Shown here: positions 20,861 to 42,847 of the stretch, piece after piece
Numbering within the stretch: the stretch's first letter is position 1
Layout of the letters: every line of letters starts with the position of its first letter
IMG/VR virus record: IMGVR_UViG_3300021964_000036
Span: 18,492-82,491 of that record
Strand: one strand, 5' to 3'
From: a virus
Length of the DNA: 64,000 nt
Translations under genes and position numbers: made by a program
The notes under the pieces: generated by a model
Seen by the model: only the letters and a program-made list of their open reading frames with translations
Database searches by the model: none
What the model was told of the DNA's origin: nothing

Positions 20861-21343
20861 TTGAGGTATATTAAAACCATAAACGAATTTTTTGATACTG
20901 GGGTATTTGGCGATACCTATGGATATGGTGGTGCTAATGGTATCTTCAAGGTCCAATATAAACCATATAAAGACCTTTCTGTGTCAGTGGGACCAGATCC
21001 TAATCAAAAAAGAACGGTAAGAGGTTCCCAGTTTCAGGTTGGTGATATTGTGATCGGGGTTCCAGTAGATTCAAAGGAAAAGGTAGCAGGAATGATAGTT
21101 CGTACTGAAAGAACCCCCGATAACAAGTCATATAAGTATTTTGCACAAGTGCATTCTAAGGGGAAGGATACTGAGGAAGTTTTAGAGCTAATTCCAGATA
21201 CCGTGGAATTTGCAGATAATGGTGATAAAGGTCATAAGCAAATTATATCTCATTTCAAGCTAGATACTATGCCTTCGGGTGTTTATAATTCACCAACAGT
21301 TTATAATAATACCAAACTTGGTATAGAAGCAATAGGAAGTTAG
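20861..21343 (+). CDS. putative head-internal protein with capsid-targeting-like leader and SH3/KOW-like domain
   Basis: N-terminus MRYIKTINEF; FQVGDIV; GATAAATA at 20834. Confidence 0.55.
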   Translation: MRYIKTINEFFDTGVFGDTYGYGGANGIFKVQYKPYKDLSVSVGPDPNQKRTVRGSQFQVGDIVIGVPVDSKEKVAGMIVRTERTPDNKSYKYFAQVHSKGKDTEEVLELIPDTVEFADNGDKGHKQIISHFKLDTMPSGVYNSPTVYNNTKLGIEAIGS

Positions 21344-21370
21344 AAACTTTCACCTCTTTGCCTGCTAAAA
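21343..21370 (+). promoter_or_regulatory. putative phage ECF-sigma promoter
   Basis: GAAAC-N17-CTAAAA. Confidence 0.6.
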
Positions 21371-21374
21371 CATA

Positions 21375-22256
21375 TTGATGATACTAGGCAGGAATCTTAA
21401 TCAAATAGGATATGTTAATCGAGAATCCTCTTCAACTGCGGAGGGGACTTTTCTTTTTGCACAGGGTGTACTAGATCTCATGAAGGATAATCATGAAAAG
21501 GGAATACCCGTTACCTGCATTGAAATTCCCCAAAATTTTAATAAATTGGATTTTTCTAGTATCGAGGAGGAAAGTAGGGAATCTGATGTTATTTGGTCAA
21601 CGTTCCAGTTTATAAAGTCTAATAGACATAGACTATTTTTCTTTCTCCCTAATTACTTCTTCCTTGGAAGTCAAATTGAGGGGGTGGTAGAAGAAAGTAA
21701 ATCTGTGATTACCGAACTCTCTACTTTTTTAGATCAAATTGGTGTAAAAGAAACTTCTATAATTCTTAGGATAGGTAGCGCATACGGAGCTAGGAAAACT
21801 ACGATGGAAAGGTTTTGTAAGGAGGTTAAGTCTCTTGGTGATACTGTTGTAGAGAAGCTTTCTGTTTGCAATGACGAGAAACCAAGTCTTTTCTCGGTGA
21901 CAGATCTTTTAAGCGGTGTTTTCTATTCTGCTGGCTTGCCAATAGTTTTCAGATTTCTACCTCACCAGTTTAACAGTGGTGGACTTTCCACAAGGGAAGC
22001 TTACTTCTTGGCTGTGTCTACGTGGGTTAAAGGGAAGGTACCTATCTTTATTCATTCTGAATCACGTGAAGTTGACGAAAATGGGGTTTCCCTCTCGCCG
22101 GTACCCTCAGATACATTGTTACATAGAATACCCACTTTTGGGTTAGAAATAGATGTTATCTTAGATATACCAAGTGGTCTTCAGGGATGCTTAGTTTATC
22201 TTGCTAATTATATTTCTCTCAGACCAATGGTAATCAATAAAGTTGGCAGAAAATAA
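21375..22256 (+). CDS. UvsE/UVDE-like TIM-barrel protein, apparently degenerate
   Basis: NDEK..FSV.DLL, LPIVF, GGLS..EA..LA..TW and HSES match UvsE, but the metal-binding His/Glu/Asp residues are substituted. Confidence 0.65.
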   Translation: MMILGRNLNQIGYVNRESSSTAEGTFLFAQGVLDLMKDNHEKGIPVTCIEIPQNFNKLDFSSIEEESRESDVIWSTFQFIKSNRHRLFFFLPNYFFLGSQIEGVVEESKSVITELSTFLDQIGVKETSIILRIGSAYGARKTTMERFCKEVKSLGDTVVEKLSVCNDEKPSLFSVTDLLSGVFYSAGLPIVFRFLPHQFNSGGLSTREAYFLAVSTWVKGKVPIFIHSESREVDENGVSLSPVPSDTLLHRIPTFGLEIDVILDIPSGLQGCLVYLANYISLRPMVINKVGRK

Positions 22257-22280
22257 TTTTTATTCAACGGCCTCTTTCCT

Positions 22281-22288
22281 TAGTTTTG
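22281..22288 (+). promoter_or_regulatory. Bacteroidota-type -7 element (TAnnTTTG)
   Basis: TAGTTTTG 14 nt before ATG 22303. Confidence 0.5.
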
Positions 22289-22302
22289 TATAAAATCTAA
22301 TT

Positions 22303-23794: not shown

Positions 23795-23818
23795 AATTTC
23801 CTTTTTCTATTTCCTTCT

Positions 23819-23859
23819 GGGATTGTTTGGATATATAAAGTCCAAATAATCCCTTTTTT
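23819..23859 (+). terminator. intrinsic terminator with late promoter GATATATA (23830-23837) at its loop
   Basis: GGGATTGTTTGGA / TCCAAATAATCCC stem plus T6, directly followed by the GTG start at 23860. Confidence 0.8.
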
Positions 23860-24651
23860 GTGGGCGCAGTTTTAGATTTTAGTAGATTTGTTTTAAACGA
23901 GGATAAGATTGGTTCTTTCTATAACGATGAACTAAATCCAAAGTTCTGGGACAAATACAAAAACAAGAATGGTGAAACCCAATGGGTCTTTGATAGGCTA
24001 GTAAGAAAAAAGTTGCTTAAGATAGCCGAAGACTTTTACGAAAAATATAGCGATCTATTAGGAGATCTTCCGATTGAGGATATACAACTCACTGGATCAT
24101 TAGCTAATTTTAACTATACTGATAAGTCGGATCTTGACGTTCATGTGCTCGTTGACTTCAATAAGGTAAAGTCAAAACCAGAAATGGTAAAAGCAGCAGT
24201 TGATGGAATTAGGTTTGTTTGGAATCTAAGACATGACGTTGTTATCAGAAATCATGATGTTGAGCTTTATCTCCAGAACATACACGAGCCACATACAGCT
24301 TCTGGTCTTTATTCTCTACTTAATGATAAGTGGATAAGAAAACCAAAGTTTGATCCGCCAGAGGTAGACGAACAAGATGTAAGAAAGAAGTTTGATGGAT
24401 TAGCATCTGAAATTAACCAAATGGAATCCAAACTTGTTACTTCTTCATCCCTTCCCAAGGATGCAAAGGAGATGTATAAAAGGCTTATTCGGTTAAAAGA
24501 AAAGATACAGAAAATGAGAAAAGACGGACTTTCCAAGGACGGAGAATTCTCGATAGGTAACCTCGCCTTCAAAATGCTGAGAAATGAGGGATATATAAGT
24601 AAGCTCATAGATTTAATTTCAAAAGCTTACGCTAGAATTTACTCGGAGTAA
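23860..24651 (+). CDS. Pol-beta superfamily nucleotidyltransferase with capsid-targeting-like leader
   Basis: LTGSLANFNYT.KSDLDVH (hG[GS]..DxD), third acid in DVELY; leader VLDFSRFVLNE. Confidence 0.8.
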   Translation: MGAVLDFSRFVLNEDKIGSFYNDELNPKFWDKYKNKNGETQWVFDRLVRKKLLKIAEDFYEKYSDLLGDLPIEDIQLTGSLANFNYTDKSDLDVHVLVDFNKVKSKPEMVKAAVDGIRFVWNLRHDVVIRNHDVELYLQNIHEPHTASGLYSLLNDKWIRKPKFDPPEVDEQDVRKKFDGLASEINQMESKLVTSSSLPKDAKEMYKRLIRLKEKIQKMRKDGLSKDGEFSIGNLAFKMLRNEGYISKLIDLISKAYARIYSE

Positions 24652-24668: not shown

Positions 24669-27362
24669 ATGTTACTAGTATTTAGAAAAGGACTGGACTA
24701 TAAAGGAAGCATGAACGGCCTTCCTGAAAACCAGGACGAGAACATTTTTCCCATAATGTCAATTCCACTTGATTTAGAGGGTGAAGAAACTGATCTTAAT
24801 GATTTCCAATGGTGGGCTTATACTGACAAGTGGAAGAAATGGTTGGATGCAAATCCAAGAGAATGGAAAGCTGAATCCCACGATGTTAGGTTTGATAAAG
24901 CTGAGCAAATTTTAGAGGCCATAGTAACTTCTAAAAATCCAGTTACTGAATATGTTTCTCATCAAGCTAAATCCTTATGGAACGAGGGTCAAGTTTCTTC
25001 GTTTGCGGATTATGTAAAAATATTGGAAGCAGAAGATTCTTCTGGGTCAAGAGAAGCAACAAAAAAGTTTATAAAACTAGGATATGCTATCGAAAAGCTT
25101 GCAAAAGAAGGCAAGCTTAAGGACATCTTAAATATGGATGATCTGGAGGAAGGTAAACAATATGCTGTAGTTGTTGACCCGATGACCGAGGAGGGAGATC
25201 CAGTTCAAGAGGCAAGGCAAGCTTTAAGACTAAAGAAAATTAGCGAGTCAACTGGTATCGTTGTAGCTGAGGTTGACTATAGCATTCCGTTAGGCGATGT
25301 GGAAGATACTAAGGATTTTATGGACAAGGTCGCAGAATTTGCTAAAGATGTAGCAATAGGCGGTGCAAGCCTTGCTGCTCTGTATGGTGTAGCTCAAGTG
25401 GCTGGAAGTCTTTACTTAGGATGGAGACTTTTAAAAGGAGCACGCGGTATTTATAGAAATTTTGGTAGAGCTAGGAGAATCCACGGAGCTATTTCAAGTG
25501 TAAGAGGTACAGCAGCACCTGCTTGGAACTCTGTCAGACAGTTTGCTACAAGAGCTTTTACTAGGAGAGCAGGGGCACAAGCAGTTGCAAATGCTGCTAG
25601 AATTACTTTGCCTTCTGGTGCATTTGTTGAGGGTGGATTAGCTTATTCTACAAGGGCAACTGGAAATGTATTATTAAAAGGTGCAGCAGCACAATCTACT
25701 AAAGCAGCAGCACAAAGACTAGTAGCTCAAGGTGGGGCAAGAGCGGCAACAGCAGTAGCCGGTAGAGCTGCTACAGCAGCTGGTGCAAGTTCACTCGTTG
25801 CTGCTGAAGCTTCTAATCCGGTTGGTTGGATTATAGCAGCAGCATCTGTAATAGGTTCTGGAATTAATCAACTATGGAATTGGTATAGTGATAAACAAGC
25901 ACCTAGGTACGGTGAAGTTGAGGACTTTGCGTATGGTAGTTTTAATCCTAAAAATATACCGGTTGGAAAATCGATCACTGTTTGTTGGACAAGCGACGGT
26001 GGAGGTGGCGGATGGGGATTCGTTATGGATCTGTTGACTTTTTCTAAGGATGATACTAGGACAACTATGGAATTAGTCAAGCTTGGTGAGTTTAATGATA
26101 GATCGGTCTTTGTGATGCTTCAGGTAAACTCTGAAATGTTTGAAAAGACAATGAAGGATAATGACCTTATACTTCTTTCCTTTGCCAACAACGATTCTTT
26201 TGAAAGAGGAACATTTGATAACGATGATTTGGAATTCCAAACTATTATTATACCAGATGTGTCTGAACTTACAATTGCTACATCATTTGTGGGTTATTCA
26301 ACATGGGATGAAATGAAAGAGGCATATAAAGCAAGTCCAGACAGTCCTATTTACGTACCAAGCGGAGCAAGAAAGGACTACCAATTCCACTACACCGATG
26401 CGGACGGAAACGACGTAAATGTAACAGGAACACTCGTAAATGAAAATGAAATAAGCGATACAGTCTTACAGGATTTAGTTCCAGGTGCAGCTGGTGCTGT
26501 TGATGAATCTGCTACTTCTGGTCTAGATTACTCACACTTAGTAAACGAAAGTAAGGTCCTATCATTCAAGGACTTCTCAATTAGAACTAATCCTATAATG
26601 GAAGAAGACGCTGCCAATGCGGAGGATGCTGAAAATACAGAAAATGCAGAGGGTGCTGAATCTGCAGAAGAGAATACTTATGAGGACGATTTACTAACCT
26701 CTGTTTCTGCTGCATCTGCTTTGGAGGCAGAGTACAGTCAAATCCCAGTGTTAGCATATAGGGTTAATACAATAAGTTTTGTTGACCCAACTGTTAATGA
26801 GAACGTTGATCAATTCAACTACTTTATAATTGGTGAGCAAAGTATGGATCCTAAGATAAATCAGCCAATCTTAGTTGAATCCGCTTCCGAAGCTGGTATT
26901 GAAGATCCAAGATTTGGTTTAAAAACTTATGTCCCACCTGCACCCGAAGAGGATGATAAGGATGAAGAAGCCCCAGAGGTTGAAGACACTGAAGTAATCG
27001 ACATTGAAGGGGTGGATGAGCCATCTTCAAAATCTGTACAAACTGCTAGGGGTGATGTCCAGATCAAAAGTAAAACAGGTTCTTTAACAATTAAAGATAG
27101 AGATATGGAAGGTGGCATAAACATCTTTGATGAATTTGCTACAAGTGATCTTAAGAAAGACCTAAACATAGGAGATTGGAAAAACATCACTAGTGTGAGA
27201 GTCAGATACGATAAAGACGAGGAACCAATTAAGGTAGTGCTTAAAAATAGGTTCGCTAAAGCTGGTGATAAAAGAAGGGTAATCAGAAAAGGAGAGCAAG
27301 GATTTGATTCAGCTCTAAGTTTTGCTGAAACCGTAGAAGGGGGTATATCTTTCTCCGGATAA
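24669..27362 (+). CDS. large late protein with Ala/Gly-rich hydrophobic core (putative ejected or membrane-inserting head protein)
   Basis: GATATATA at 24590; hydrophobic GGASLAALYGVAQVAG and SNPVGWIIAAASVIGSGI segments; internal SFxD(F/Y) motifs. Confidence 0.55.
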   Translation: MLLVFRKGLDYKGSMNGLPENQDENIFPIMSIPLDLEGEETDLNDFQWWAYTDKWKKWLDANPREWKAESHDVRFDKAEQILEAIVTSKNPVTEYVSHQAKSLWNEGQVSSFADYVKILEAEDSSGSREATKKFIKLGYAIEKLAKEGKLKDILNMDDLEEGKQYAVVVDPMTEEGDPVQEARQALRLKKISESTGIVVAEVDYSIPLGDVEDTKDFMDKVAEFAKDVAIGGASLAALYGVAQVAGSLYLGWRLLKGARGIYRNFGRARRIHGAISSVRGTAAPAWNSVRQFATRAFTRRAGAQAVANAARITLPSGAFVEGGLAYSTRATGNVLLKGAAAQSTKAAAQRLVAQGGARAATAVAGRAATAAGASSLVAAEASNPVGWIIAAASVIGSGINQLWNWYSDKQAPRYGEVEDFAYGSFNPKNIPVGKSITVCWTSDGGGGGWGFVMDLLTFSKDDTRTTMELVKLGEFNDRSVFVMLQVNSEMFEKTMKDNDLILLSFANNDSFERGTFDNDDLEFQTIIIPDVSELTIATSFVGYSTWDEMKEAYKASPDSPIYVPSGARKDYQFHYTDADGNDVNVTGTLVNENEISDTVLQDLVPGAAGAVDESATSGLDYSHLVNESKVLSFKDFSIRTNPIMEEDAANAEDAENTENAEGAESAEENTYEDDLLTSVSAASALEAEYSQIPVLAYRVNTISFVDPTVNENVDQFNYFIIGEQSMDPKINQPILVESASEAGIEDPRFGLKTYVPPAPEEDDKDEEAPEVEDTEVIDIEGVDEPSSKSVQTARGDVQIKSKTGSLTIKDRDMEGGINIFDEFATSDLKKDLNIGDWKNITSVRVRYDKDEEPIKVVLKNRFAKAGDKRRVIRKGEQGFDSALSFAETVEGGISFSG

Positions 27363-27427: not shown

Positions 27428-29434
27428 ATGAACGAGTCTTTATTGAATGAAAATCTCCTCTTTATCCTTGAAAAGCAAGATAATAGTCTTTCTGTCAACG
27501 ATAAAAACGAAGATGGCTATGTACTCAAAGGTATAGCAGCACAATTTGGAAAGGAGAATAATAATAACAGAATCTATGAGGAAGGTGAATACCTACCCCA
27601 TTTGGAGTACCTAAAAGATAAGATAGGTCAGAAAAGATTGGTTGGTGAATTAGACCATCCTGAAAAATTCGATGTTTCTCTTAAGAACATTTCTCACGTT
27701 GTTGAAGACCTTGTTTATGATAAAGACGGAAGAGTATTAAATATTAAGGTTCGTTTGCTTGACACACCAGCTGGACAAATTGCTAAGAAGCTAGTTGATG
27801 CTGGTATCCCTCTTTCTATTTCATCTAGAGCAGCTGGAAATGTTGGTCCTGATAAGAAGGTCCAAATCAAAAAAATCTTTACATACGATCTAGTAGCAGA
27901 TCCTGGTTTTCAGGATGCTCAACTTGAAAGAGTTTACGAGAGTGCTGGTTTTGATGCTTTTGAATTTCAAGAAAGGTCAAAGAAGTCAATCGTAAACAAC
28001 TTAGAGTGTGTAAACGAATCGCTAGGTTTAGAAAATGAATCTGGAGTGAAGATATATAAAGTTGAAAATAGCGAAGAATTCGAAAAAATCCTTAATCAAG
28101 ACAAAAATAAATCCAACATTATGGAGGCCAACAAAGAATATGTTACTGCTGACGAGCTTAATAAGTATTCTATCTTTTTGAAAAATAAGATGGATGAGCT
28201 TGAAACGCAGATTTCTGAAATGAAACAACAAGAAACTCAAGTTTCTGAAAGTGAAAACGACAGTGTAGACTGTAAAGCGCTCGAGGAAAGGGTTGCTAAA
28301 TTAGAGAAGTACTCCGAGTATCTTGCTGAAAATCTAGAAAGCGCTATCAAGTACGGCGAGTATTTGGCAGAAAATCTAGATAGCAGCATTACTTATTCTA
28401 AGTATCTTGCTGAGAATTTAGACAAGACTATCTCTTATTCAAAGTATTTGGCCGAAAATGTTGATAAGGGTATTTCTTATACCGAATATGTAGCTGAGAA
28501 TGTTGATAAGTCTATTGATTATTCTAAGTATTTAGCAGAAAAACTAGACGATGGTATTCAATACACAGAATACGTGGCTGAAAATCTTGATAAGAATATA
28601 GCTTACTCTGAGTATCTAGCAGAAAATGTTGATAAGAACATTGCTTATTCTGAGTATTTGGCAGAGAATCTTGATAAGGGTATTTCTTACTCTGAATATC
28701 TTGCAGAGAACTTGGATAAAGGAATCGCTTATTCTGAGTACATCGCAGAAAAATTAGATCAAGGCATTAATTACACAGAGTATCTTGCTGAAAATCTAAA
28801 CAAAGGTATCGCTTATTCCGATTACCTAGCTGAAAAGCTCAATGGCAATATTGCTAACACTGAAGCTCTTCACGAAAGCGCAAAGACAGAAAAAACTCCA
28901 ACACTAAACGAAAGTGCTAGAGAAAATGCTGAAAGCGCATCTAAAACTGAATTGGTTGAATCAGGATTTGCTGGAGATTATGAAAATCTCGGAAGCAAAA
29001 TTGATTCTCTAATTGAATCAGTCAAAACACAAAAGACTGAGGAAAATATAAACGAGGCACAAACGAAAGTTATGCCGACTGCTCAAACACAAAAAGCAGA
29101 TGAGGCAATCAACGAAGCCAAAGAAGAAAAATTGGTAGAGTCATCAGGTCACAAGTTTATTGATGAAATGCCAGAAGATTACGCTCCGTTATGGGAGTCA
29201 CTAAATGAAAGCCAAAAGCAATCAGTGATTGCACAATCAGCTTTCTATAACTTAGAGACTACATATCAGATCAAGAATTTCTGGTCAACACGTCAGCTTG
29301 GTGCTAAACCAGTGGGACTTCAGAAACTTCAAGAGAGCCAAGAAACACCAGAGCCTAAGACGGCTACAGCCCCTCAGGGGTATTCAAATGATTACCTTAA
29401 TTGGGTCGCTAAGTCGCTCGAAGGTAAGTTTTAA
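27428..29434 (+). CDS. gp21: prohead protease (gp21-like) fused to scaffolding/core domain
   Basis: N.NNRIY, GELDHP, SH, LLDTPAG, ISSRAAG, YDLVADPGF; C-terminal repeat and coiled-coil region; precedes the capsid gene. Confidence 0.9.
   Translation: MNESLLNENLLFILEKQDNSLSVNDKNEDGYVLKGIAAQFGKENNNNRIYEEGEYLPHLEYLKDKIGQKRLVGELDHPEKFDVSLKNISHVVEDLVYDKDGRVLNIKVRLLDTPAGQIAKKLVDAGIPLSISSRAAGNVGPDKKVQIKKIFTYDLVADPGFQDAQLERVYESAGFDAFEFQERSKKSIVNNLECVNESLGLENESGVKIYKVENSEEFEKILNQDKNKSNIMEANKEYVTADELNKYSIFLKNKMDELETQISEMKQQETQVSESENDSVDCKALEERVAKLEKYSEYLAENLESAIKYGEYLAENLDSSITYSKYLAENLDKTISYSKYLAENVDKGISYTEYVAENVDKSIDYSKYLAEKLDDGIQYTEYVAENLDKNIAYSEYLAENVDKNIAYSEYLAENLDKGISYSEYLAENLDKGIAYSEYIAEKLDQGINYTEYLAENLNKGIAYSDYLAEKLNGNIANTEALHESAKTEKTPTLNESARENAESASKTELVESGFAGDYENLGSKIDSLIESVKTQKTEENINEAQTKVMPTAQTQKADEAINEAKEEKLVESSGHKFIDEMPEDYAPLWESLNESQKQSVIAQSAFYNLETTYQIKNFWSTRQLGAKPVGLQKLQESQETPEPKTATAPQGYSNDYLNWVAKSLEGKF
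28051..28063 (+). promoter_or_regulatory. internal late promoter for nested scaffold
   Basis: GATATATAAAGTT begins 70 nt upstream of the in-frame ATG 28121, which has an A-rich leader. Confidence 0.6.
28121..29434 (+). CDS. putative nested in-frame scaffolding protein (gp22-equivalent)
   Basis: In-frame ATG after the protease domain, internal promoter, leader AAAAATAAATCCAACATT. Confidence 0.5.
   Translation: MEANKEYVTADELNKYSIFLKNKMDELETQISEMKQQETQVSESENDSVDCKALEERVAKLEKYSEYLAENLESAIKYGEYLAENLDSSITYSKYLAENLDKTISYSKYLAENVDKGISYTEYVAENVDKSIDYSKYLAEKLDDGIQYTEYVAENLDKNIAYSEYLAENVDKNIAYSEYLAENLDKGISYSEYLAENLDKGIAYSEYIAEKLDQGINYTEYLAENLNKGIAYSDYLAEKLNGNIANTEALHESAKTEKTPTLNESARENAESASKTELVESGFAGDYENLGSKIDSLIESVKTQKTEENINEAQTKVMPTAQTQKADEAINEAKEEKLVESSGHKFIDEMPEDYAPLWESLNESQKQSVIAQSAFYNLETTYQIKNFWSTRQLGAKPVGLQKLQESQETPEPKTATAPQGYSNDYLNWVAKSLEGKF
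28310..28855 (+). repeat. 13 x 42 bp degenerate coding repeat (YSEYLAENLDKGIx)
   Basis: 13 contiguous 14-aa units counted in the translation. Confidence 0.92.
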
Positions 29435-29459: not shown

Positions 29460-31181
29460 ATGAAACTAATCAACGAAGCAGAAATCTTCGAAACCTGGTC
29501 TCCTATCATCGAGCAGAAGGCTGGAATTCAAGATGCTGAGAAAAAAGGATGGTTGAGCAAGTACTGCCACTACCATTCATTAAACGAGTCTGCTGGTGCA
29601 TATCAGTCACTAGCAACTGTAAACGGTATGGGTGCCGTAGCTCCACCCGCATACCCAGGTGGGTATAACTCCACTGGTTCTGCAGTAGGTACGCAAGCAA
29701 ACGCTGCTTTCTACAACGCTGCTAACCAAGGTTCAGGAGATAAGTTTCCTTCACTTCTTCCTTTGGCAATTCAGGTTGCTGCGAAGACAGTTGGATTCGA
29801 TATCGTTCCTGTAATTCCTATGTCAGGTCCTACTGGCGTACTTTCTTACCTAGATTACGTATACTCAGGTGGTAAAATCAGTCCTGCATCTGCTGGCGCA
29901 TCTGCTGCTGAAGCCCTTGCAACTGCACCTTCTATGATCAAGGTAGAATTGACAAACGCTGCAGCAGGATATCCTGGTAACTTTGCAGTAGGTACTACTT
30001 ACTACATCACTAACGCTTCTTCAGCTGGTGCTTACATCACAACTGAATTTGTTGGTCTTTCTAGAATCGATGGTTTCCCAATCTTCAGAATCGTTGGATT
30101 AACAGCTGGTGAAACTGTTTCTGCAGTTCTTGATGGCGGTGCTACTAAAATTGGTACTGCAGTAGATGGAAACCAAGCTGGTACTACAACTGCAAGAGCA
30201 GAATTGGTTAAAGCTCTTGAGGATCACATCCAAGGATTCTCTGGTGCTGGTTTTAACAACGACCAAGACTGGCAAGGACCATTCGTAGATGGTACTAAGA
30301 CTTACAACCCAATGCTAAGAGGTGTAGGTGAAAGCACTTACTACCAATCAATGGGTCTATCAACGTTCACTAAGTTCGTTGAAGCTGATACTTTCCAAGT
30401 AGCTGCTTCAGTAACTACTGAACAGATCCAAGACCTTAACAAGCAATTCGGTATCGACGTAATTTCTATGATCGAGAACGCATTGGTTAATGAGGTATCT
30501 CAAGCTATTAACAAGCACATCCTATCTAGAGCATTCGCTCTTGGTTGGTCTAACCACGATGAATTCTTGACTACAGAAGGTCAGAACTTGAACCTAAACC
30601 TCGTTATCGGTGGTACTGCTGGTTCATACACTATTCCTTCTTACGTAGGTAAGTCTGACACTGGTATCTCTATCGCTTCTGTTGCAGGTCCTGCTTCAGG
30701 TGGATACGAGAACTTGTCAACTCTACAGAGAAGACTATTCTCTAGAATTCTAGCTGGTGCTAACGTAGTAGCTAACAGAGGAAGAAGAGGTCCTGCTAAC
30801 TTCATCGTTACTAACGCTAACGTTGCAAGTGCATTGCAAGACATCTCTCAGTTCACTTTTGCACCTTTCTCTAACACACTAACTCAAAACAACGGTACAC
30901 TTTACCCAGTAGGTTCGCTTGCAGGTATGACTGTTTATGTTGATCAGAACATGAAGTTCGGTGATAACAGAGTATTAGTTGGTAGAAAAGGTGGTGACGA
31001 CGAACCAGGACTTAAGTTCATGCCTTACATGATGGCTGAGTCTATCCAAACAATCTCTGAGGGTACTATGTCACCTAAGATTGCGGTTAAGTCTCGTTAC
31101 GCTCTAGTAGAAGCTGGTTTCCACCCAGAAACTATGTACTTCTGTTTCCACGTGAACGTTCCTGCTGGAGGTCTATCCTAA
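29460..31181 (+). CDS. gp23: major capsid protein (T4 gp23-like)
   Basis: V.PMSGPTG, T.EQIQDL..QFGID, L.NE....INK, RRG.ANF, G..FMPY, PKIAVKSRY. Confidence 0.95.
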   Translation: MKLINEAEIFETWSPIIEQKAGIQDAEKKGWLSKYCHYHSLNESAGAYQSLATVNGMGAVAPPAYPGGYNSTGSAVGTQANAAFYNAANQGSGDKFPSLLPLAIQVAAKTVGFDIVPVIPMSGPTGVLSYLDYVYSGGKISPASAGASAAEALATAPSMIKVELTNAAAGYPGNFAVGTTYYITNASSAGAYITTEFVGLSRIDGFPIFRIVGLTAGETVSAVLDGGATKIGTAVDGNQAGTTTARAELVKALEDHIQGFSGAGFNNDQDWQGPFVDGTKTYNPMLRGVGESTYYQSMGLSTFTKFVEADTFQVAASVTTEQIQDLNKQFGIDVISMIENALVNEVSQAINKHILSRAFALGWSNHDEFLTTEGQNLNLNLVIGGTAGSYTIPSYVGKSDTGISIASVAGPASGGYENLSTLQRRLFSRILAGANVVANRGRRGPANFIVTNANVASALQDISQFTFAPFSNTLTQNNGTLYPVGSLAGMTVYVDQNMKFGDNRVLVGRKGGDDEPGLKFMPYMMAESIQTISEGTMSPKIAVKSRYALVEAGFHPETMYFCFHVNVPAGGLS

Positions 31182-32378: not shown

Positions 32379-33272
32379 ATGCTTCTGAAATTTAAAGAGT
32401 GGGAATCACACAATATTAATGAAAAAGATGCCAGCATTGATAAGATCATGAACTGGCTAAGTTCCAATTTTGGTGGTACTATATCAAAGATAGATAGTTT
32501 GCTCGCAGACATTAATTCTATTGAATCACAATATTCAAAAGATTGGAATGATATTCAAACTGACATAGATGCACTGGAAATAAAGAAAGCTCAAACAAAA
32601 AGTGATCCTGCAGAATCTAAAAAGCTAGAAAGGATGATTGATAGAAATCAAAAACTAGTTGTTGCTTTGAATAAAAAGAGAAAAGCTGATATTGATAAGA
32701 TTGATAATAAGGTCGAAAAGCTTACTAAGGGTAAGCAAAGACTAGTATCATATTGGAACCTTAAAAAATCTGAATTGGAAGCTGATCTTGCTGAGAAGAT
32801 GTATAAGATGGCAAAAGATTTAACAGATGAATCCATTGCAGACGATCTTTATGACAAATATAAGGAGGCAGCTCTCCAAGCAAAAGCTAAGGATGAGAAA
32901 TTTAGGGAAAAGTTTGGTAAACTGGAATTAGCTAAACCGTCTACATTAAAACAAGATGCTGAAACTAAAGCCATATCTGGTTCTAATTTTTCAATGGATC
33001 CTATCTTCTCCATGAATGCTCCACAGTTTACTAAGTTTGTACAAGACCTTGAAAAAAGTCAAGTTAGTGCTTTAATTAAAGCAATGCAGTCTGAAAGGAA
33101 TGAAAGATATGCAACTTTAGATACCGAAAGAGATAGACTAGAGGCGCAAGCAAAAAAGAAAGGCCTTTCTTCGGATAGCGTCAAAAAGGACCTTTCGGAC
33201 CTCAGAGAAACCTTGATGAGGCAGATAAGAGATTTAAGAACTAAAATAACTATTGCTAGAAGGTATGCATAA
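32379..33272 (+). CDS. coiled-coil putative head-internal protein (distant paralog of 31277..32377)
   Basis: Leader MLLKFKEW...INE; similar domain layout. Confidence 0.6.
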   Translation: MLLKFKEWESHNINEKDASIDKIMNWLSSNFGGTISKIDSLLADINSIESQYSKDWNDIQTDIDALEIKKAQTKSDPAESKKLERMIDRNQKLVVALNKKRKADIDKIDNKVEKLTKGKQRLVSYWNLKKSELEADLAEKMYKMAKDLTDESIADDLYDKYKEAALQAKAKDEKFREKFGKLELAKPSTLKQDAETKAISGSNFSMDPIFSMNAPQFTKFVQDLEKSQVSALIKAMQSERNERYATLDTERDRLEAQAKKKGLSSDSVKKDLSDLRETLMRQIRDLRTKITIARRYA

Positions 33273-33534
33273 TCACATCAAGAGCTTAAACGATTTCCCC
33301 CTTTTTGAAGGTGTGAACGAGGACCTTGTAAAAGCAAAGGCTGACGTTAATGCTAAGCAAGCAGAAATTGCTGAAGAGATAGCTAAGCAAAAAGAAACAA
33401 CTGATCTAAAGGAAAAAGCGGCAAGCATTAGAAACCAGGCAAGATTAACAGGACAGATGCCAGGTCTATTAAATGCTTTAGCAAACGCTATGGACGCAAA
33501 GGCTGATTCCGGAGATACAACAAATATTTACTAA
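33265..33534 (+). CDS. small putative head-internal protein
   Basis: Leader MHNHIKSLNDFPLFE; start at ATG 33265. Confidence 0.6.
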   Translation: MHNHIKSLNDFPLFEGVNEDLVKAKADVNAKQAEIAEEIAKQKETTDLKEKAASIRNQARLTGQMPGLLNALANAMDAKADSGDTTNIY

Positions 33535-33536: not shown

Positions 33537-35930
33537 ATGGCAAATAATTATCTTAAAAGAAACCCAGTAGCAAATCAGATGTCAATTGAGACATTTAGAT
33601 TGTTCGAAAATCAAGATGTTGATAAGGCTTTAGAGATATCTGTAAATACCCTATTAAGTCTATATAAGAAACTTACGTTCGATTTAGCCTCTGATAGGAA
33701 CAGAACTTTTGACTCCTTTTCTAAGAAGTTAATAACTGTTAGTGATGCTTCTTCAATTAAGTCATTAGTTGCTAACATTAAGGATGTCTGCGAAGACGTT
33801 GATCTTTCTGATAGTGTTCTTGCACCATTAAAGAAAAGGTATTTAGATTCTATTGATATGGTAGGGGATGCTATTAAGAGAATGATAGAATTAGATCCTT
33901 CGTTAGAAGCAAAGGCTATTGAATATTTTAAGAAGTCGAGTAAGGTCTTAATGGAAACAATTAAAAGGGTAGCAGACCAATACAAAGAGAAACTTAACGA
34001 GTCTACTGCAATTGGTGTACCTGGAAGAATGGAGAGGTTAAAGAGAATCCTTTTAAACCATATTGTTGATTCGAAGGGAAAGGATGCTAAGTCAGGATAT
34101 GGTAGGGACTGGCATCGCTTGTTCTCAACATTAGAGCAGAAGCTTTCTGCAATTAATAGTGATAAGGCAACATTTTCTGATGCTGATAGAAAAAACTTGT
34201 CGGAGCTTGAAAAAAAGACTGATAGTCTTGTACAGGAGTATAATCAATATAAGGTTAGAGCTGTTGAGACAATGATGTCCAAGATATTAAAGGACTCTGA
34301 TCTGGAAGCTAAGTTTTCTGATTTTATTGAAATAATGACAAATGCCCTAGATGGAGTTACAAAATCTAACACTGAAGAAGGGTTAATTGAGGTAAAGGTT
34401 AGAGAGAACCTTGATGACAAAGAAACTAGGATGCAAGATAGAGTATTCCCATTAAAGGCGGGTGATAAAGACAATGATGCTAAGCTAAAGGGGTCGGGGT
34501 TAATCCAGGCTATTCAAAAGTCTCTAATTGATGCATTTGTACCTATCAAAAATCTTTTAGATCCAAGAGGAGGTGCAAACGGAAACTTTGATACCTCCAT
34601 GGGAGTTGCTGTCAAATCTATTCAGGCTTCACTGGGTAATAAGGATGTAAGTGGTAAATTAGATAAGCCACTCTTAGATGTTATCCTCAAGTTGGACCAA
34701 GTATCGTCTGAAAACAAGGACTCTATTAAGGAAGCTATTGGAAAACTTAGGGTTTCATATTCTACTCTTAGTGAATCCGGTAATGCGTTAAGTGTTAGCG
34801 AGTTTATGAGATTGATGGAAGCAATGACCTATATTGATCCGAATGAAATTGAGGATAAGATTAAGCTTTATAGTGAAGAAATAACGGAGGATGATGAATC
34901 AATGTCACAGCCGACTACTTCTGATTATTCTATGGCAGAGGCATTAGCAAAACTTCTTAGAACAAAGAACTACAATAAGAATGCAGAAGCAGAAGATTTC
35001 CTTAAAGAAGACGGTACACTAAAAGGATCTTGTCCTCACGATTTTGTTAGTGGTTGGACAAAAGCTATCTCTGGGGATAAGCCAGTTTCGTTCTTCTTTA
35101 TAGAGGACGAGGAAGGCGGATCCCTTTACCCAACAAAGAGAATTTCTGGTAATGTAAACAAGCCATGTAACTGGAAAAGATATAAATCCATATCTGGAGA
35201 CGAAACGGAAGACATCCACAAGTTTGGAAAGTGGTATACCACATACTGGAAAAACTTTGGTGGCGTTGGCTCCGAAATCAAAGGAAAGGTACTTGATGAT
35301 GTAATGAAATCAAATTGCTCTTTAGCAAAGGAGGAAAAATTGGATGACGTTGTTACAATTTATGAGGAGCTAGAAAATTCTTTTATGCCACATAAGGAAG
35401 AAATTTGTCATGGCTACCTTAGACCTGAATCAATGAAAGGCATATGCTCCAGCGTAAAAGGAATGATGGGTAATGACGGAATAGATAATTTAAGCCCTAG
35501 CGAACTTAGATCTCTTTATAACACTGTGGTCGTAACATCCCCTCTTATTACATTTGACAAAGAAAATGACGAATGGGTTCCTGCTTTAAATATGTTATGT
35601 AAGAATTTGAATATATCTGAAGACGAGCTAATTTCTGGCATTAAGAAGAACGGATCCCTAGGGAAATCTGGAAAGATGAGTGCTGAAAAAATTGCTTACC
35701 TGGACACAAGACCTAACCAAGACTCCAACAACAATGAGATTCTAAAGTCTACAATTCTGGGAAGTACAGAGGACCCTGAGAAGGTTGCAAATATGAAGTC
35801 TACCTTGGATAAGATTAAATCGATAACAAAGAGTCTTTCCAAACACACAAAAAGAATTGGAATCTCCAAAAGCGATGACATAAGTCCGGATGTTTCGGAT
35901 TCTATGGTTATCATTACGATGGAGAGGTAA
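33537..35930 (+). CDS. large putative head-internal protein with peptidoglycan-binding-like domain
   Basis: FPLKAGD...IQAIQKSL...NGNFDTSM..AVKSIQ...SGKLD resembles a PG-binding domain; LFE, LNES and LSES sites. Confidence 0.55.
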   Translation: MANNYLKRNPVANQMSIETFRLFENQDVDKALEISVNTLLSLYKKLTFDLASDRNRTFDSFSKKLITVSDASSIKSLVANIKDVCEDVDLSDSVLAPLKKRYLDSIDMVGDAIKRMIELDPSLEAKAIEYFKKSSKVLMETIKRVADQYKEKLNESTAIGVPGRMERLKRILLNHIVDSKGKDAKSGYGRDWHRLFSTLEQKLSAINSDKATFSDADRKNLSELEKKTDSLVQEYNQYKVRAVETMMSKILKDSDLEAKFSDFIEIMTNALDGVTKSNTEEGLIEVKVRENLDDKETRMQDRVFPLKAGDKDNDAKLKGSGLIQAIQKSLIDAFVPIKNLLDPRGGANGNFDTSMGVAVKSIQASLGNKDVSGKLDKPLLDVILKLDQVSSENKDSIKEAIGKLRVSYSTLSESGNALSVSEFMRLMEAMTYIDPNEIEDKIKLYSEEITEDDESMSQPTTSDYSMAEALAKLLRTKNYNKNAEAEDFLKEDGTLKGSCPHDFVSGWTKAISGDKPVSFFFIEDEEGGSLYPTKRISGNVNKPCNWKRYKSISGDETEDIHKFGKWYTTYWKNFGGVGSEIKGKVLDDVMKSNCSLAKEEKLDDVVTIYEELENSFMPHKEEICHGYLRPESMKGICSSVKGMMGNDGIDNLSPSELRSLYNTVVVTSPLITFDKENDEWVPALNMLCKNLNISEDELISGIKKNGSLGKSGKMSAEKIAYLDTRPNQDSNNNEILKSTILGSTEDPEKVANMKSTLDKIKSITKSLSKHTKRIGISKSDDISPDVSDSMVIITMER

Positions 35931-38808: not shown

Positions 38809-38837
38809 TGGAGCGATATATAAAGAAAAACGCTCCA
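38809..38837 (+). promoter_or_regulatory. late promoter GATATATA inside a hairpin abutting the start codon
   Basis: TGGAGCG / CGCTCCA stem; ATG at 38840. Confidence 0.65.
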
Positions 38838-38839: not shown

Positions 38840-39520
38840 ATGGCTAATAATATTAAATCATTTAGTGATTTTAAATCTGCTAGCGTTTCTGATGTGAACG
38901 AGAACTGGGTTTCTGATCTTTTGGGATACGCTGGTGGAGCATTCAGTGACGTACTTAAAGGAAAAGCTTCTGCTTATCTAATGAGTTTTTTCGGCATTGG
39001 TGAACAATCTATATTTAGTAAGCTTGTACAAAACTTTGTAGAACAAATTCCAATTGCAGATCTTACTAAAATCATATTTGCTGGTAAGGCTAATTCAGCT
39101 TATTTAGCTCCTAAGATGGCAGATGCAACTATAGAATTCCTATCAGAAAAAGGTTTGGATGGTATTGCACAGGATCTTCATATCGACCCTTCAGGTTGGA
39201 TATACAGGACCCTTTCAGAAATCGTAAGCAACCAAGCAAGAAGAGAAAACTTTAGAGAGCAATTGGTCGGATTTTATTTACAAGCATTTAATGGATTTGA
39301 AAGCCCAGATATGGATGAGTTTAAAAATTCGTTATCCCCAATGGAAACAAGAAGCCTGGAAAAAGGTTTAGAGGATGTTGCTAGAAGGTCTGGAGGAGAT
39401 ATAAACATTACACCAAGCGAAGGTGGTGCAGATTTAGTCACTAACTTTTTAAGTGGATTAGTTGGAAATGGACAATCAATGCAATCACTGGGGCTTAGCA
39501 CTGGGGGAACAATTCAATAA
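38840..39520 (+). CDS. putative head-internal protein
   Basis: Leader MANNIKSFSDF...VNE; start at ATG 38840. Confidence 0.6.
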   Translation: MANNIKSFSDFKSASVSDVNENWVSDLLGYAGGAFSDVLKGKASAYLMSFFGIGEQSIFSKLVQNFVEQIPIADLTKIIFAGKANSAYLAPKMADATIEFLSEKGLDGIAQDLHIDPSGWIYRTLSEIVSNQARRENFREQLVGFYLQAFNGFESPDMDEFKNSLSPMETRSLEKGLEDVARRSGGDINITPSEGGADLVTNFLSGLVGNGQSMQSLGLSTGGTIQ

Positions 39521-39532
39521 AATATTTAGACC

Positions 39533-39901
39533 ATGAATATAAATGACGTATCAAAGAGAGAAGTTTTAGACTTTGATCAGTTTAAAAAGAAGGTTCACGA
39601 CGAAACCTACAAACCATTCTCAGCTGAGAATCAGGAAAGCGGTGAAGGAAAGACCGGATTACATAAGATAAAAAGAGAGCCTGCTTATGATTGGGTTGGC
39701 TATGCTGATGCAGTATTTAGCCCAGAAAAAGCAGGAATTGAGGTTCCTGGATATAATGCTGATGGCGATAGAGAGTACAATATAGCAAACGCGGGTCCTT
39801 CTATTGTAAATGCTCCAAATTCAGCACAGACGCTTTCAAGCGCACTTGGGGAATCTGCTGTAAACGAGTCATTCTCTATCAAAAGGTTAGAGGACTTCTA
39901 A
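39533..39901 (+). CDS. small putative head-internal protein
   Basis: VLDFDQF near the N-terminus and VNES.SIKRLEDF at the C-terminus. Confidence 0.55.
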   Translation: MNINDVSKREVLDFDQFKKKVHDETYKPFSAENQESGEGKTGLHKIKREPAYDWVGYADAVFSPEKAGIEVPGYNADGDREYNIANAGPSIVNAPNSAQTLSSALGESAVNESFSIKRLEDF

Positions 39902-39925
39902 AATTCTAGCTATTACATTACATTT

Positions 39926-39958
39926 AAAGACAAGTTTCTTTTGAAACTTGTCTTTTTT
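39926..39958 (+). terminator. intrinsic terminator overlapping an ECF promoter -35 element
   Basis: AAAGACAAGTTTC-TTTT-GAAACTTGTCTTT plus T run. Confidence 0.85.
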
Positions 39959-39969
39959 GTTTGCTATAA
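39943..39969 (+). promoter_or_regulatory. putative phage ECF-sigma promoter
   Basis: GAAAC-N16-CTATAA. Confidence 0.55.
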
Positions 39970-39987
39970 ATCATATAAGCAAATCTG

Positions 39988-40656: not shown

Positions 40657-40657
40657 T

Positions 40658-41386
40658 TTATTTCCTTTCTCTTTCTTCTTTGCTTATCTCCCTAATAAAT
40701 AGCTCTTTAGCTATTTTGAGTGTTACCGATTCTTCATTAAAATCCTCGTAAATTTCCATCACATTTACTGCTGGATCAATTGAATGTTCTAGATTCATTA
40801 TCTCTATTATCTCGTGAACGATGAATTCGTATGACATCGAGAAGTAAGAATTTCTAAGGAAGACTCTTTTCATAAGCGTACCTGCTGATCCCCTTCCCAT
40901 TTTTCCATTTTGCCACCAGTATGCGATAATTTGATCGCTTGACATATTTCTAAATATAAGTATGCCTTGATCTTTTTTAAGTGCATCCCCAAATCTTTCG
41001 AGACTGAAAGATTTTATTCTGCTCTCTATATTTTTCCAAAGATCCATACCAAGGTCAGCGTACTTATAGAGTATGTTAAGTGAGTTTTCTATAATTTTCT
41101 TAACTTCCTCCCTCTCAAATTCTTCTAACCTTGAAGTCTCGTAATATTCAACTAGATTTTTTATATGTGTTGGAAGATCTTTTGGTATATCCTTGAATTC
41201 CTTTTCAATCCAAATTTTCACAGAGCTTAGTTCCTTAATCATGGAGAAAATCTTTTTTATTGGATAATAAATATCCTCCTCCCTAATGTCTTTATTGACA
41301 GTTGATAGGAAATCTAATAAAACGTATTGTTTGTATTCTTGATCGATTGGATGTTCGATGAACCATGTGGGTTGAATGTCTTTCAT
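40658..41386 (-). CDS. hypothetical protein (only credible minus-strand gene)
   Basis: 242-aa ORF filling the gap between + strand genes; WF.E.PID.EYKQY.LL motif. Confidence 0.75.
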   Translation of the reverse strand: MKDIQPTWFIEHPIDQEYKQYVLLDFLSTVNKDIREEDIYYPIKKIFSMIKELSSVKIWIEKEFKDIPKDLPTHIKNLVEYYETSRLEEFEREEVKKIIENSLNILYKYADLGMDLWKNIESRIKSFSLERFGDALKKDQGILIFRNMSSDQIIAYWWQNGKMGRGSAGTLMKRVFLRNSYFSMSYEFIVHEIIEIMNLEHSIDPAVNVMEIYEDFNEESVTLKIAKELFIREISKEERERK

Positions 41387-41467
41387 GGTGGAAGAATTAT
41401 GTTTGTTACTCTATATATTGTCCCCTGGGTATACTTCTTGACTTTAAAAGAACCTGTTTAGTTGCGT

Positions 41468-41475
41468 GATATATA
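41468..41475 (+). promoter_or_regulatory. putative late promoter GATATATA
   Basis: Intergenic, before ATG 41500. Confidence 0.65.
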
Positions 41476-41499
41476 ATACATAAAAAAAGTGGTCACAGT

Positions 41500-41937
41500 A
41501 TGCCAAGGATAGACGATTATATTTCATTTAGCTCTAGTAAGAAAAACAACGTTTCTAGCGAGTTTTCTTTCTCCAAAGAATTAGGTATGCTGGATGTCCA
41601 AATTGTAAACAGACCACCAGAAATTTCAGACGTAGATTCTCTTGAACTTGAAATAGAATACAAGGTTTCAATTGCAAGAAGAAAGGACGGTATACAGGAT
41701 TTGGATTTTATGGTTGAAAGTATGGAACTTGAAATAAAAGTCGATGATTACCCTAACGAGCAAAAGGAATTTGAGTTTGATATTGTTCCTGATGTTAATA
41801 TTGCAATACCTTCTGTTGTGATCCAAAAGGGTTCAAGACTAGTTCCAACAGATCCAACATTTGCAAGAATTGATATGAGAAAATCAATGAACCCAAAAGA
41901 CTTCAGAATACAAATACTCTTTGGCAGTAATGAATAA
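41500..41937 (+). CDS. hypothetical late protein
   Basis: ORF after a late promoter; leader MPRIDDYISF. Confidence 0.65.
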   Translation: MPRIDDYISFSSSKKNNVSSEFSFSKELGMLDVQIVNRPPEISDVDSLELEIEYKVSIARRKDGIQDLDFMVESMELEIKVDDYPNEQKEFEFDIVPDVNIAIPSVVIQKGSRLVPTDPTFARIDMRKSMNPKDFRIQILFGSNE

Positions 41938-42847
41938 GGCTTTGAACTTTGCCCAGTTTGGTAAAATAAACGAATCACTCTCAATATCAAAAAAAGATGT
42001 TGGGTTAATTGGTCCCAATATGGATGGGGAAATTAAGCTGAGAATTCCTAATCCTGGCATAACTTTAAAAAGAATAGATGACGGGGAGAATTACGTCTTT
42101 GAGATAGGAGAAAAATCTTGTTCGGTCCCTAAAAAATTCATTTCATTATCAACCCAACCCGGTTATGACATTGTTTCGTTTAATACTAACACTAATTGGT
42201 TTAAACAGGAAAATAATTCGGAAAGAATCTCTGATGTGATTGAAGAATTCCTCACATCTCAGTATAAAAGTCTGTCTAAAAGTAGCGACCCAATTAAGGA
42301 TGACGTTAACATTATTTTGGATGCTTTTGGTATTGAGGATGATGTTACAGCATTCAATTCCAATTCACCATTACAAATGGATGGACAGACACAAAACGGG
42401 ATGGAGTTTGAGATAGAGAAAGAAACTTCGGAGGATCTCTTTAAAAAGTTTTTTTTGTATAAGGATATTGACTCAATACATCCCATGATTTCTATTAAGA
42501 GGAAGGGAGCAAGATTCAATTGTATCTATAGAACACCAAAGGGAAACTTTGAATGTAAGCATGATTCTATTGATGAGATGCTAAATAGCCCAACTGATAA
42601 GTATCTTATGTCAGTTTGCATTGGGAATGAATCGGAGGAAAATCAAAGAAACCTTGTGGATCACTTGATGAGGCTTTTCAAATATCATTCCTGGGATAAA
42701 GCAGATTCGAAAGCGAAAGCAAGCAAAAATGCAGAGGAGAGGAAAGAGATTAAGAAGATAATGAATATTCTCAAAAACACTATCTCCGAGGACCATATTG
42801 GGGAGATGTACTCTGATGCAAGGTCTAAATTCATGGGTAACAGGTAA
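41930..42847 (+). CDS. putative head-internal protein
   Basis: Leader MNKALNFAQFGKINES; start at ATG 41930. Confidence 0.6.
   Translation: MNKALNFAQFGKINESLSISKKDVGLIGPNMDGEIKLRIPNPGITLKRIDDGENYVFEIGEKSCSVPKKFISLSTQPGYDIVSFNTNTNWFKQENNSERISDVIEEFLTSQYKSLSKSSDPIKDDVNIILDAFGIEDDVTAFNSNSPLQMDGQTQNGMEFEIEKETSEDLFKKFFLYKDIDSIHPMISIKRKGARFNCIYRTPKGNFECKHDSIDEMLNSPTDKYLMSVCIGNESEENQRNLVDHLMRLFKYHSWDKADSKAKASKNAEERKEIKKIMNILKNTISEDHIGEMYSDARSKFMGNR

Follow-up and report, generated by a model that had tools for sequence, protein, structure and literature searches.

Conserved two-part leaders resembling the T4 capsid targeting sequence on unrelated late proteins of an uncultured giant phage

Head targeting in described phages and the locus examined

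Bacteriophage T4 marks its internal proteins IPI-III and Alt with a capsid targeting sequence (CTS), an N-terminal tag that is removed by the gp21 protease (Mullaney and Black 1996; PMC9026906, PMC8442874, PMC3012670, PMC5694885). The portions of these sources that deal with the signal give the tag as MKTYQEFIAE (PMC8442874), with a length of 10-19 or 10-20 residues (PMC5694885). Residues 4 and 7 of IPIII are the main determinants of its targeting, residues 8 and 10 those of its processing (PMC9026906, section 2.6), and Asp at position 10 blocks processing but preserves targeting (PMC9026906). The phiKZ-type giant phages, as the corresponding part of PMC5694885 presents them, have A/S/G-x-E sites and propeptides that are mostly longer than 100 residues. 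Here we describe short N-terminal leaders on a set of unrelated late proteins in a 64,000-nucleotide stretch of viral DNA (IMG/VR record IMGVR_UViG_3300021964_000036, positions 18,492 to 82,491), hereafter the window. We think it probable that these leaders are capsid targeting and cleavage signals of the T4 type, read by the phage's own gp21-like protease-scaffold, and that the tagged proteins or their fragments are retained in the head.

The T4 system and head processing in giant phages are already in print, and these leaders extend that known kind; none of the papers listed by a literature search concerns such leaders in uncultured giant phages of Bacteroidota. The window, 64 kb of an 82.5-kb record, has nearly all of its coding on the + strand, and its genes include those for the head, the tail and replication. 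When the head module was compared with phage records by megablast, no match at the nucleotide level appeared. Among deposited phages, the closest capsid proteins are those of uncultured huge phages and of the Prevotella Lak megaphages, at 44-46% identity, and that of Tenacibaculum phage PTm1, at 31%. For comparison, 190 related loci were fetched, 80 centred on the capsid gene, 80 on the portal gene, 24 on a baseplate gene and 6 around 41921; the 80 capsid-centred loci were selected from 181 relatives and have capsid identities of 72-100%.

Proteins are named here by the position at which their genes begin. Three of these starts lie within longer open reading frames (ORFs): 33265 is M5 of ORF 33253, 38840 is M14 of ORF 38801 and 41930 is M4 of ORF 41921. 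All three agree with the starts of orthologues and with promoter spacing; the start of the 38840 gene was set there because of a promoter at 38815. The proteins concerned are as follows, with arrows at predicted cuts.

20861-21343, + strand: late protein of 160 aa; leader MRYIKTINE (20861-20887), cut-site half only, INE↓F
23860-24651, + strand: 263 aa, putative Pol-beta-type nucleotidyltransferase; 14-residue leader (23860-23901), ..VLDFSRFVLNE↓D
31277-32377, + strand: 366 aa; leader MRKLNSHKQFLLE (31277-31315); second site INE↓G-37 (to 31387)
32379-33272, + strand: 297 aa; leader MLLKFKEWESHNINE (32379-32423)
33265-33534, + strand: 89 aa; leader MHNHIKSLNDFPLFE (33265-33309); mature part 74 aa
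33537-35930, + strand: 797 aa; leader at 33537-33608; predicted cut sites LFE↓N-24, KLNE↓S-155 (ends 34001) and RLME↓A-428 (ends 34820)
38840-39520, + strand: 226 aa; leader MANNIKSFSDFKSASVSDVNE (38840-38902)
39533-39901, + strand: 122 aa; aromatic half only, ..REVLDFDQF.., then conserved V-(H/M)-D
41500-41937, + strand: late protein of 145 aa preceding 41930; N-terminus M-x-R-I-x-D-Y-x-x-(F/Y), kept in all orthologues
41930-42847, + strand: 305 aa, no assigned fold; leader MNKALNFAQFGKINE↓S (41930-41974)

The eight leaders that end in a predicted cut site measure, in this order, 9, 14, 13, 15, 15, 24, 21 and 15 residues. Pfam and PHROG offered no family for 20861, 31277 (a weak Phosducin match aside), 32379, 33537, 38801, 39533, 41921 or 6373, and the protein atlas gave nothing usable for 20861.

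Conservation of the two halves of the leader

The leader has two parts: h-x-x-Ar-x-x-Ar, where h is hydrophobic and Ar aromatic, and, after a spacer of 0-12 residues, (L/I/V)-(N/F/L)-E. Positions 4, 7, 8 and 10 of the T4 CTS, to go by the excerpts cited above, are Y, F, I and E, the same layout as Ar-x-x-Ar followed by h-x-E. A first-pass annotation of the window, made from the letters and their translations, had proposed a shared leader motif at nine N-termini and at several internal positions. All of these strings are indeed in place, but the motif is not whole on every protein: seven (23860, 31277, 32379, 33265, 33537, 38840 and 41930) keep both halves, while 20861 has the cut site only and 39533 the aromatic half followed by h-x-D. 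The proteins had also been called unrelated, and BLASTP among 11 mature parts bears this out, with no cross match at E <= 0.01.

Regular-expression statistics are flat within the single genome, and conservation among orthologues was therefore taken as the test instead. The pattern sought was [hydrophobic]-x-x-[FYW], 0-12 residues, then [LIVMFT]-x-E, within the first 45 residues. Ten of the 59 families with at least 6 distinct orthologue N-termini keep it in at least 90% of orthologues; six of these were on the earlier list, one is the capsid protein, and the other three are 2541, 5767 and 58220. In the seven unrelated families with a two-part leader, between 73 and 100% of orthologues keep it, even though indels occur and identities fall to 22-27%: 100% of 45 N-termini for 23860, 97% of 33 for 31277, 100% of 46 for 32379, 100% of 22 for 33265, 92% of 36 for 38840, 94% of 17 for 41930 (down to 22% identity) and, at the low end, 73% of 44 for 33537, in which h-x-E by itself is present in 100%. 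Identified enzyme families range from 0 to 35% (Asn synthase 0%, AAA ATPase 0%, PfkB kinase 4%, 5'-3' exonuclease 7%, Fpg/Nei 13%, UvdE 15%, PolB-like exonuclease 35%).

Up to 10 spacer lengths occur within one family (10 in 23860 and in 38840, 8 in 32379), so the two halves are kept while the residues between them change in number and in kind. Where leaders can be aligned, the Glu is conserved at 0.96-1.00. In the 23860 family, where the leader appears as VLDFSRFVLNE, VLHFSDFLKNKGISLNE or VLDYISFNSGINE, E14 is the sole invariant residue before L25; in 32379, N14 and E15 are the only invariant residues among the first 30, with F5 and W8 at 90% or more. The Glu of INE↓G in 31277 is present in 100% of 40 sequences and that of LFE↓G in 33265 is conserved at 0.96; diverged copies of 33265 in relatives carry MLKFKEF(I/V)VNE.

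Three proteins hold one half without the other. The 20861 family begins M-K-x-I-K-x-I-N-E↓F and has no Ar-x-x-Ar upstream; all 49 orthologues in the alignment have INE or h-x-E at residue 9, and h-x-E is found in 100% of 40 orthologue N-termini. Orthologues of 39533 show R-E-(V/I)-L-D-F-x-x-F followed by h-x-D in 35/35, and h-x-E in 2/35. Since Asp at position 10 of T4 IPIII blocks cutting and not targeting, in the account of that mutant cited above, 39533 is possibly targeted but uncut. The N-terminus of 41500 resembles the aromatic half of the leader and has no h-x-E after it.

A stricter form of the motif (M within 15 residues, Ar-x-x-Ar, then hNE) separates these families from the rest. 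It is found in 146/479 ORFs of the leader families and the capsid protein versus 3/2453 ORFs of all other families. Within the single genome N-termini are not enriched; the comparison of orthologues sets the leader families well apart. The codons vary at motif positions (GAA and GAG, 26 and 19 times in 23860; AAC and AAT; at least six codons for Leu and Ile), and selection therefore acts at the level of the protein. The tag also appears to be portable: in relatives the strict leader stands on 29/420 + strand ORFs that lack a BLAST match to window proteins, with 2/2016 ORFs in a minus-strand control, and several of these tagged ORF families are absent from the window. The motif itself, its conservation in amino-acid sequence, its restriction to head-module families, and the families of the protease and capsid protein encoded with it are directly established.

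Several other N-termini were considered and set aside. We did not count 2541 (which has a weak PD-(D/E)XK match), 5767 or 58220, because their matches lie inside rigid, indel-free, conserved N-terminal domains. The protein of 181 aa encoded at 5767-6312 (+ strand) has a conserved GF(L/I/V)F-x-K-D-K-F-V-L-E-E near its N-terminus, in a rigid region without indels, and meets the regular expression in 92%; it may yet be a leader. The second portal paralogue (12540, FLDYVQE) was rejected since the strict motif occurs in only 12% of 32 orthologues, as was 3389 (SRLNEG), with hNE in only 26% of 26.

There are 18 copies of the element GATAWATA, which we take as the late promoter, on the + strand and none on the - strand. 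Copies stand 25-37 nt ahead of 20861, 23860, 27428, 31277, 38840 and 41500, as well as of tail and baseplate genes; GATAAATA stands 27 nt upstream of 20861, and the promoter of 31277 is 30 nt upstream. The first-pass annotation had placed nearly all of the leader genes behind such promoters, and this agrees with what we find, four of the nine (20861, 23860, 31277 and 38840) having GATAWATA 25-35 nt before them and the remaining five sitting further down in the same operons. Late expression fits head assembly, though it is not specific to the leader set.

Protease, scaffold and internal sites

The leaders are encoded around genes whose products carry the same type of site.

27428-29434, + strand: prohead protease (S77/S80, T4 gp21 / phiKZ gp175 type) fused to a C-terminal scaffold; protease domain at about residues 1-230; N-terminal LNE-8 and ILE-15
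28310-28834, + strand: scaffold repeats, 13 tandem 14-residue units Y-x-x-Y-(L/V/I)-A-E↓N, YSEYLAENLDKGI-like
29460-31181, + strand: major capsid protein of gp23 type; propeptide at 29460-29588
6406-9198, + strand: acidic late protein of 930 aa, full of h-x-E sites followed by S, G, A or N; without Pfam or PHROG family
24669-27362, + strand: 897 aa; internal modules VSSFADYVKILE↓A (24993-25028, after E120) and VNE↓SKVLSFKDF..IME↓E (26541-26603)

The protease was recognized by PF03420 (7.6e-7; 29.3 bits, cut-off 27), PF20034 (1.5e-5) and phrog_207 (1.3e-32), and the capsid protein by PF07068 (9.6e-41). Each scaffold repeat amounts to a two-part leader with zero spacer, and across 51 orthologues none of the repeats has a Glu conserved at less than 0.94 (range 0.94-1.00). 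The capsid propeptide carries INE-6, F-E-T-W-S-P-IIE-18 and SLNE↓S-43, the last a predicted cut conserved at 0.97 in 65 sequences. The cut-site tripeptide of the leaders is thus shared with the end of the capsid propeptide and with the N-terminus of the protease. As a side observation on the protease gene, the 13-mer GATATATAAAGTT occurs both before it (27394) and inside it (28051).

The start of 6406 was set by a promoter at 6375. An alignment of 39 orthologues shows about 38 conserved sites, in most of which the Glu precedes S or G; three copies of a GYN(L/V)(D/N)E unit stand close to the C-terminus, and the gene lies beside the portal genes. From this site content, 6406 is a candidate for a second degradable protein of the head core or scaffold. 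When hxE[SGAN] counts were compared with 300 shuffles per protein for the 75 proteins listed, only four reached z >= 3: the protease-scaffold (26 vs 5.9, z 8.7), 6406 (34 vs 9.6, z 8.1), the capsid protein (8 vs 2.4, z 3.8) and 24669 (13 vs 5.8, z 3.1). The family-weighted consensus of the seven leader families has L (0.56), I (0.26) or V (0.09) two residues before the Glu, 91% in all; N (0.47), F (0.14) or L (0.13) one residue before it; and S (0.22), N (0.17) or G (0.14), and also A or D, after the cut.

In 24669, the site KILE-120 is two-part in 43/43 orthologues amid poorly conserved flanks (0.16), and ILE-83 is conserved at 0.95. Residues 625-645 form a whole internal leader, with predicted cuts after E627 and E645, whose core and downstream h-x-E are each found in 43/43 orthologues and whose upstream h-x-E is found in 35/43. 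A split form of 24669, divided at this internal leader, was sought in 56 loci and none was found. The protein has one hydrophobic segment (residues 228-246) and a region rich in Ala, Gly and Arg with a weak match to a tape-measure PHROG. The cut-site Glu residues of 33537 are conserved at 0.98 (24), 1.00 (155) and 1.00 (428) in 46 aligned orthologues; KLNE↓S-155 is a conserved site beyond those noticed earlier. The predicted fragments are 131, 273 and 369 aa. The suggestion that internal copies imply polyprotein-like processing is well served by these alignments, and the conservation is enough to expect such cutting of both 24669 and 33537. The middle fragment of 33537 (34002-34820, + strand) gave sub-threshold leads to PG_binding_1 at about residues 344-381 (protein atlas 0.83; Pfam E 0.11, 13.1 bits against a cut-off of 23), and a profile search of PDB sequences returned no peptidoglycan-binding protein. 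If real, the domain would suit an ejected protein acting at the cell envelope.

The likeness to T4 extends to several components. Both systems have an N-terminal tag (9-24 residues here) with an aromatic pair three residues apart and then (L/I)-x-E, borne by unrelated late proteins, as the T4 tag is set out in the sections cited, and both phages also encode a gp23-family capsid protein together with a protease of the gp21 family. The earlier reading of the leaders as T4-like, gp21-processed signals is accordingly well matched by a gp21-type protease, a gp23-type capsid protein and a conserved two-part leader, as far as sequence goes. In the T4 record, the N-terminus of gp23, ..AELLNKWKPLLE.., is collinear with ..AEIFETWSPIIE.. 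of the window capsid protein, and gp24 (MAKINELLRE), gp21 (MNEPQLLIE), gp22 (MLKEQLIAE) and Alt (MELITELFDE) also begin with elements of this kind; the start of the window protease, with LNE-8 and ILE-15, resembles that of gp21, with LIE-9. As in the site-rich proteins here, (L/I)-x-E recurs throughout the T4 scaffold gp22 and its core companions gp67 and gp68, frequently with S as the next residue; gp22 alone contains 16 such sites, S being common after them, and its EWLAEN is close to the repeat YSEYLAEN of the window scaffold. There are differences as well. Here the protease gene itself encodes the scaffold, with 13 regular repeats, as its C-terminal portion, and the separate site-rich protein of 930 aa accompanies it; the preferred site is LNE with S, G, A or N next; and internal copies of the tag are present.

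With phiKZ, 201phi2-1 and SPN3US, whose heads are processed by S80 proteases, this phage shares its size class, many predicted cuts at Glu of a three-residue motif and multiple sites per protein, to judge from the parts of the reports that treat processing (PMC5694885; Thomas et al.; Ali et al. 2017). The passages of PMC5694885 on these phages also describe ejection proteins, including one with a hydrophobic segment, as in 24669, and a protease that processes itself. The sites nevertheless differ from those given there, with L, I or V two residues before nearly every Glu and with short leaders, except for the 120-residue N-terminal part of 24669. As read from its sites, then, the phage follows T4 rules and not phiKZ rules, though it is giant.

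The tagged proteins and the readings of their leaders

Mature parts of the tagged proteins range from 74 to 777 aa, and only 23860, 31277 and 32379 are basic (isoelectric points 8.4, 9.4 and 9.2), the others lying between 4.5 and 6.8. The genes belong to the syntenic core of the clade: among the 80 loci around the capsid gene, of which many are short, 55 carry 23860, 67 carry 31277, 64 carry 32379, 61 carry 33537 and 50 carry 38801. They evolve fast nonetheless, with minimum identities of 22-27% versus 72% for the capsid protein. The T4 internal proteins IPI-III are small, highly basic and variable between close relatives. These features speak against a large repertoire of injected effectors, which the first-pass annotation had favored; because the set is conserved and mostly acidic, several tagged proteins may instead be parts of the head core or of an ejection apparatus, and not variable anti-host effectors.

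A credible candidate for a packaged enzyme is 23860, with a putative Pol-beta-type nucleotidyltransferase fold. Its AlphaFold2 model (mean predicted local distance difference test score, pLDDT, of 83) resembles a two-domain nucleotidyltransferase. Foldseek against PDB gave aminoglycoside nucleotidyltransferases and CD-NTases as the best matches, with AAD(9) first (6xz0, E 5.8e-4), followed by CdnE, ANT and TENT5, all with template modeling scores of about 0.22. Sequence searches gave phrog_36119 (1.5e-37) and, below its cut-off of 21 bits, Pfam NTP_transf_2 (19.3 bits). The signature T-G79-S80 plus S90-D-L-D93 is present, with G79 invariant and D93 at 90% or more, and cyanophage homologues are annotated as nucleotidyltransferases. 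The model of 41930 has a mean pLDDT of 79, and a fold search with it found no PDB match at E <= 0.001. In both models the leader is a low-confidence extension that stops where the fold begins: residues 1-16 of 23860, with the fold from 16, and residues 1-17 of 41930, which are disordered, all fall below 50.

We envisage the following sequence of events. Late in infection, the amphipathic h-x-x-Ar-x-x-Ar element would dock tagged proteins onto the scaffold core, whose 13 repeats bear a matching Y-x-x-Y-L-A-E signature, and the capsid shell would then close around them. Once activated, the protease would cut after the Glu of (L/I/V)-x-E, with a preference for LNE before S, G, A or N. The scaffold and the site-rich product of 6406-9198 would be chopped into small pieces, the tagged proteins would shed only their leaders of 9-24 residues and remain in the head, and 24669 and 33537 would fall into two or three fragments. 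The retained proteins, among them the putative nucleotidyltransferase, two basic proteins and the large protein with a hydrophobic segment, would likely exit with the DNA; their injection and any effector action are suggested by analogy alone.

A number of observations weigh against this account. Docking, cutting, retention and injection are all argued from analogy with T4. Most of the leader proteins are conserved, syntenic and acidic, unlike the T4 internal proteins, and the two halves of the leader are separated by 0-12 residues here versus 0 in T4, where they abut. Both 20861 and 39533 lack one half. In the window genome by itself, neither a loose regular expression (N-termini 9/78 vs internal 35-residue windows 75/643) nor a strict one (11/78 vs 49/466) shows enrichment, and the expression is unspecific on its own, as 2541, 5767 and 58220 also pass. 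Cut sites seem depleted from mature parts in the window (2 vs 8.7 expected, with 109 vs 92.6 in all other proteins), but over orthologue families the ratios overlap those of controls and the effect does not hold. Low terminal pLDDT is common in any protein. Finally, a homologue of 23860 in Synechococcus phage DSL-LC02 (2959-3711) lies between regA-like, clamp-loader and DNA-polymerase genes and starts MNLQEFVDKK, which is T4-tag-like and without h-x-E; since it sits among replication genes and has this start, the aromatic helix of 23860 may be ancestral to its family and not an added tag. A complex prediction between residues 1-45 of the 32379 protein and the scaffold repeats (27428 residues 285-485) scored 0.00, with controls not run, and is evidence neither way.

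A more elaborate proposal, which we put forward only tentatively, is that the leader works as a modular address in two parts, a copy of the scaffold repeat (Y-x-x-Y-L-A-E). The aromatic pair would dock and the separable cut site would set release, so that the signal could be cut (h-x-E), uncuttable (h-x-D in 39533, as in the engineered Asp-10 of T4) or site-less (41500), with internal copies making polyproteins of 24669 and 33537 whose fragments, together with the packaged nucleotidyltransferase, are delivered.

The main competing explanation, in our view unlikely, holds that the motif is a protease cut site and nothing else, carried by structural proteins of the head, core and scaffold that are incorporated through their folded parts; the aromatic pair would then have no addressing role and nothing would be delivered. 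The conserved, syntenic genes, the acidic character of most of the proteins and the cut site of 20861, which has no aromatic pair, are all as this explanation expects, and T4 gp24, gp67, gp68 and gp22 start with h-x-E within 6-10 residues yet are not cargo. The aromatic pair, however, equals the Glu in its conservation across seven unrelated families, coincides with residues 4 and 7 on which T4 targeting depends in the IPIII work described in PMC9026906, and is retained without a cut site in 39533 (35/35) and at the N-terminus of 41500; moreover, a putative enzyme and further unrelated ORFs of relatives are tagged.

That the amphipathic N-terminus serves oligomerization, a chaperone or membrane contact, with h-x-E incidental, seems to us improbable. 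The flat statistics of the single genome would suit such a role, as would the cyanophage and LR745206 homologues of 23860, which keep L/F-x-x-F without a clean h-x-E, but all families have an invariant or nearly invariant Glu, often as the sole invariant residue of the first 20, this tripeptide also ends the capsid propeptide and recurs throughout the scaffold, and the module includes the gene for an S77 protease. Hardly any credence can be given to chance, or to a signal in the nucleotides at late gene starts, for instance one for translation, since the want of enrichment in the window genome is set against free use of synonymous codons at every motif position, conserved internal copies far from any start, and a strict motif confined to 3/2453 control ORFs versus 146/479.

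If the leaders are targeting and cleavage signals, as we think probable, several uses follow. The sequence rule, h-x-x-Ar-x-x-Ar, a short spacer and (L/I/V)-(N/F/L)-E with S, G, A or N next, would predict the internal head proteome of a widespread clade of uncultured giant phages of Bacteroidota, and would separate proteins that are likely degraded (the scaffold and 6406) from those likely kept and delivered. It would extend T4 targeting logic, including the mapped tag positions 4, 7, 8 and 10, to a distant lineage. The variable spacer, the signature of the scaffold repeats, the internal tags, the natural h-x-D and site-less variants and the tagged putative nucleotidyltransferase are the instructive features, the last of these being a candidate for a packaged enzyme that acts early in infection. 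With a relative in culture, the tag might serve to bring foreign proteins into the phage head.

Similar N-termini were seen outside the leader set. The DSL-LC02 homologue bears on the gain or loss of a tag in the enzyme family of 23860; the homologues in Maribacter phages, LR745206 and Lak-B5 have a different N-terminus, and that of Prevotella phage Lak-B5 (8917-9897) starts MELNEV and contains several in-frame stops under table 11. In LR745206, an unrelated phage of 635 kb, leader-like N-termini lie beside the 23860 homologue. In other huge-phage clades, ORFs of LR745206.1 (10744-11878) and LR756500.1 (24492-25280) start MKHLTQFFDYIKES, MIYLKKFNES and MKFLETYENHIEES, near head or nucleotidyltransferase genes. 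By these N-termini, the style of tag seems to be wider than the clade under study. Within the window, a gp2-like DNA end protector at 10270-10875 (+ strand; phrog_429, 6.3e-6) starts MKSFEDQIKD, a T4-tag-like layout, and its orthologues show I-K-(D/E) or I-I-E as residues 8-10; possibly this too is a protein of the head interior that uses a related N-terminus. Tenacibaculum phage PTm1 (10228-13842), a cultured relative, likewise has a protease-scaffold fusion, with repeated ..F-T-K-E-L-S-E-G-I-E-K-W.. units, and a capsid propeptide that contains IINE↓S.

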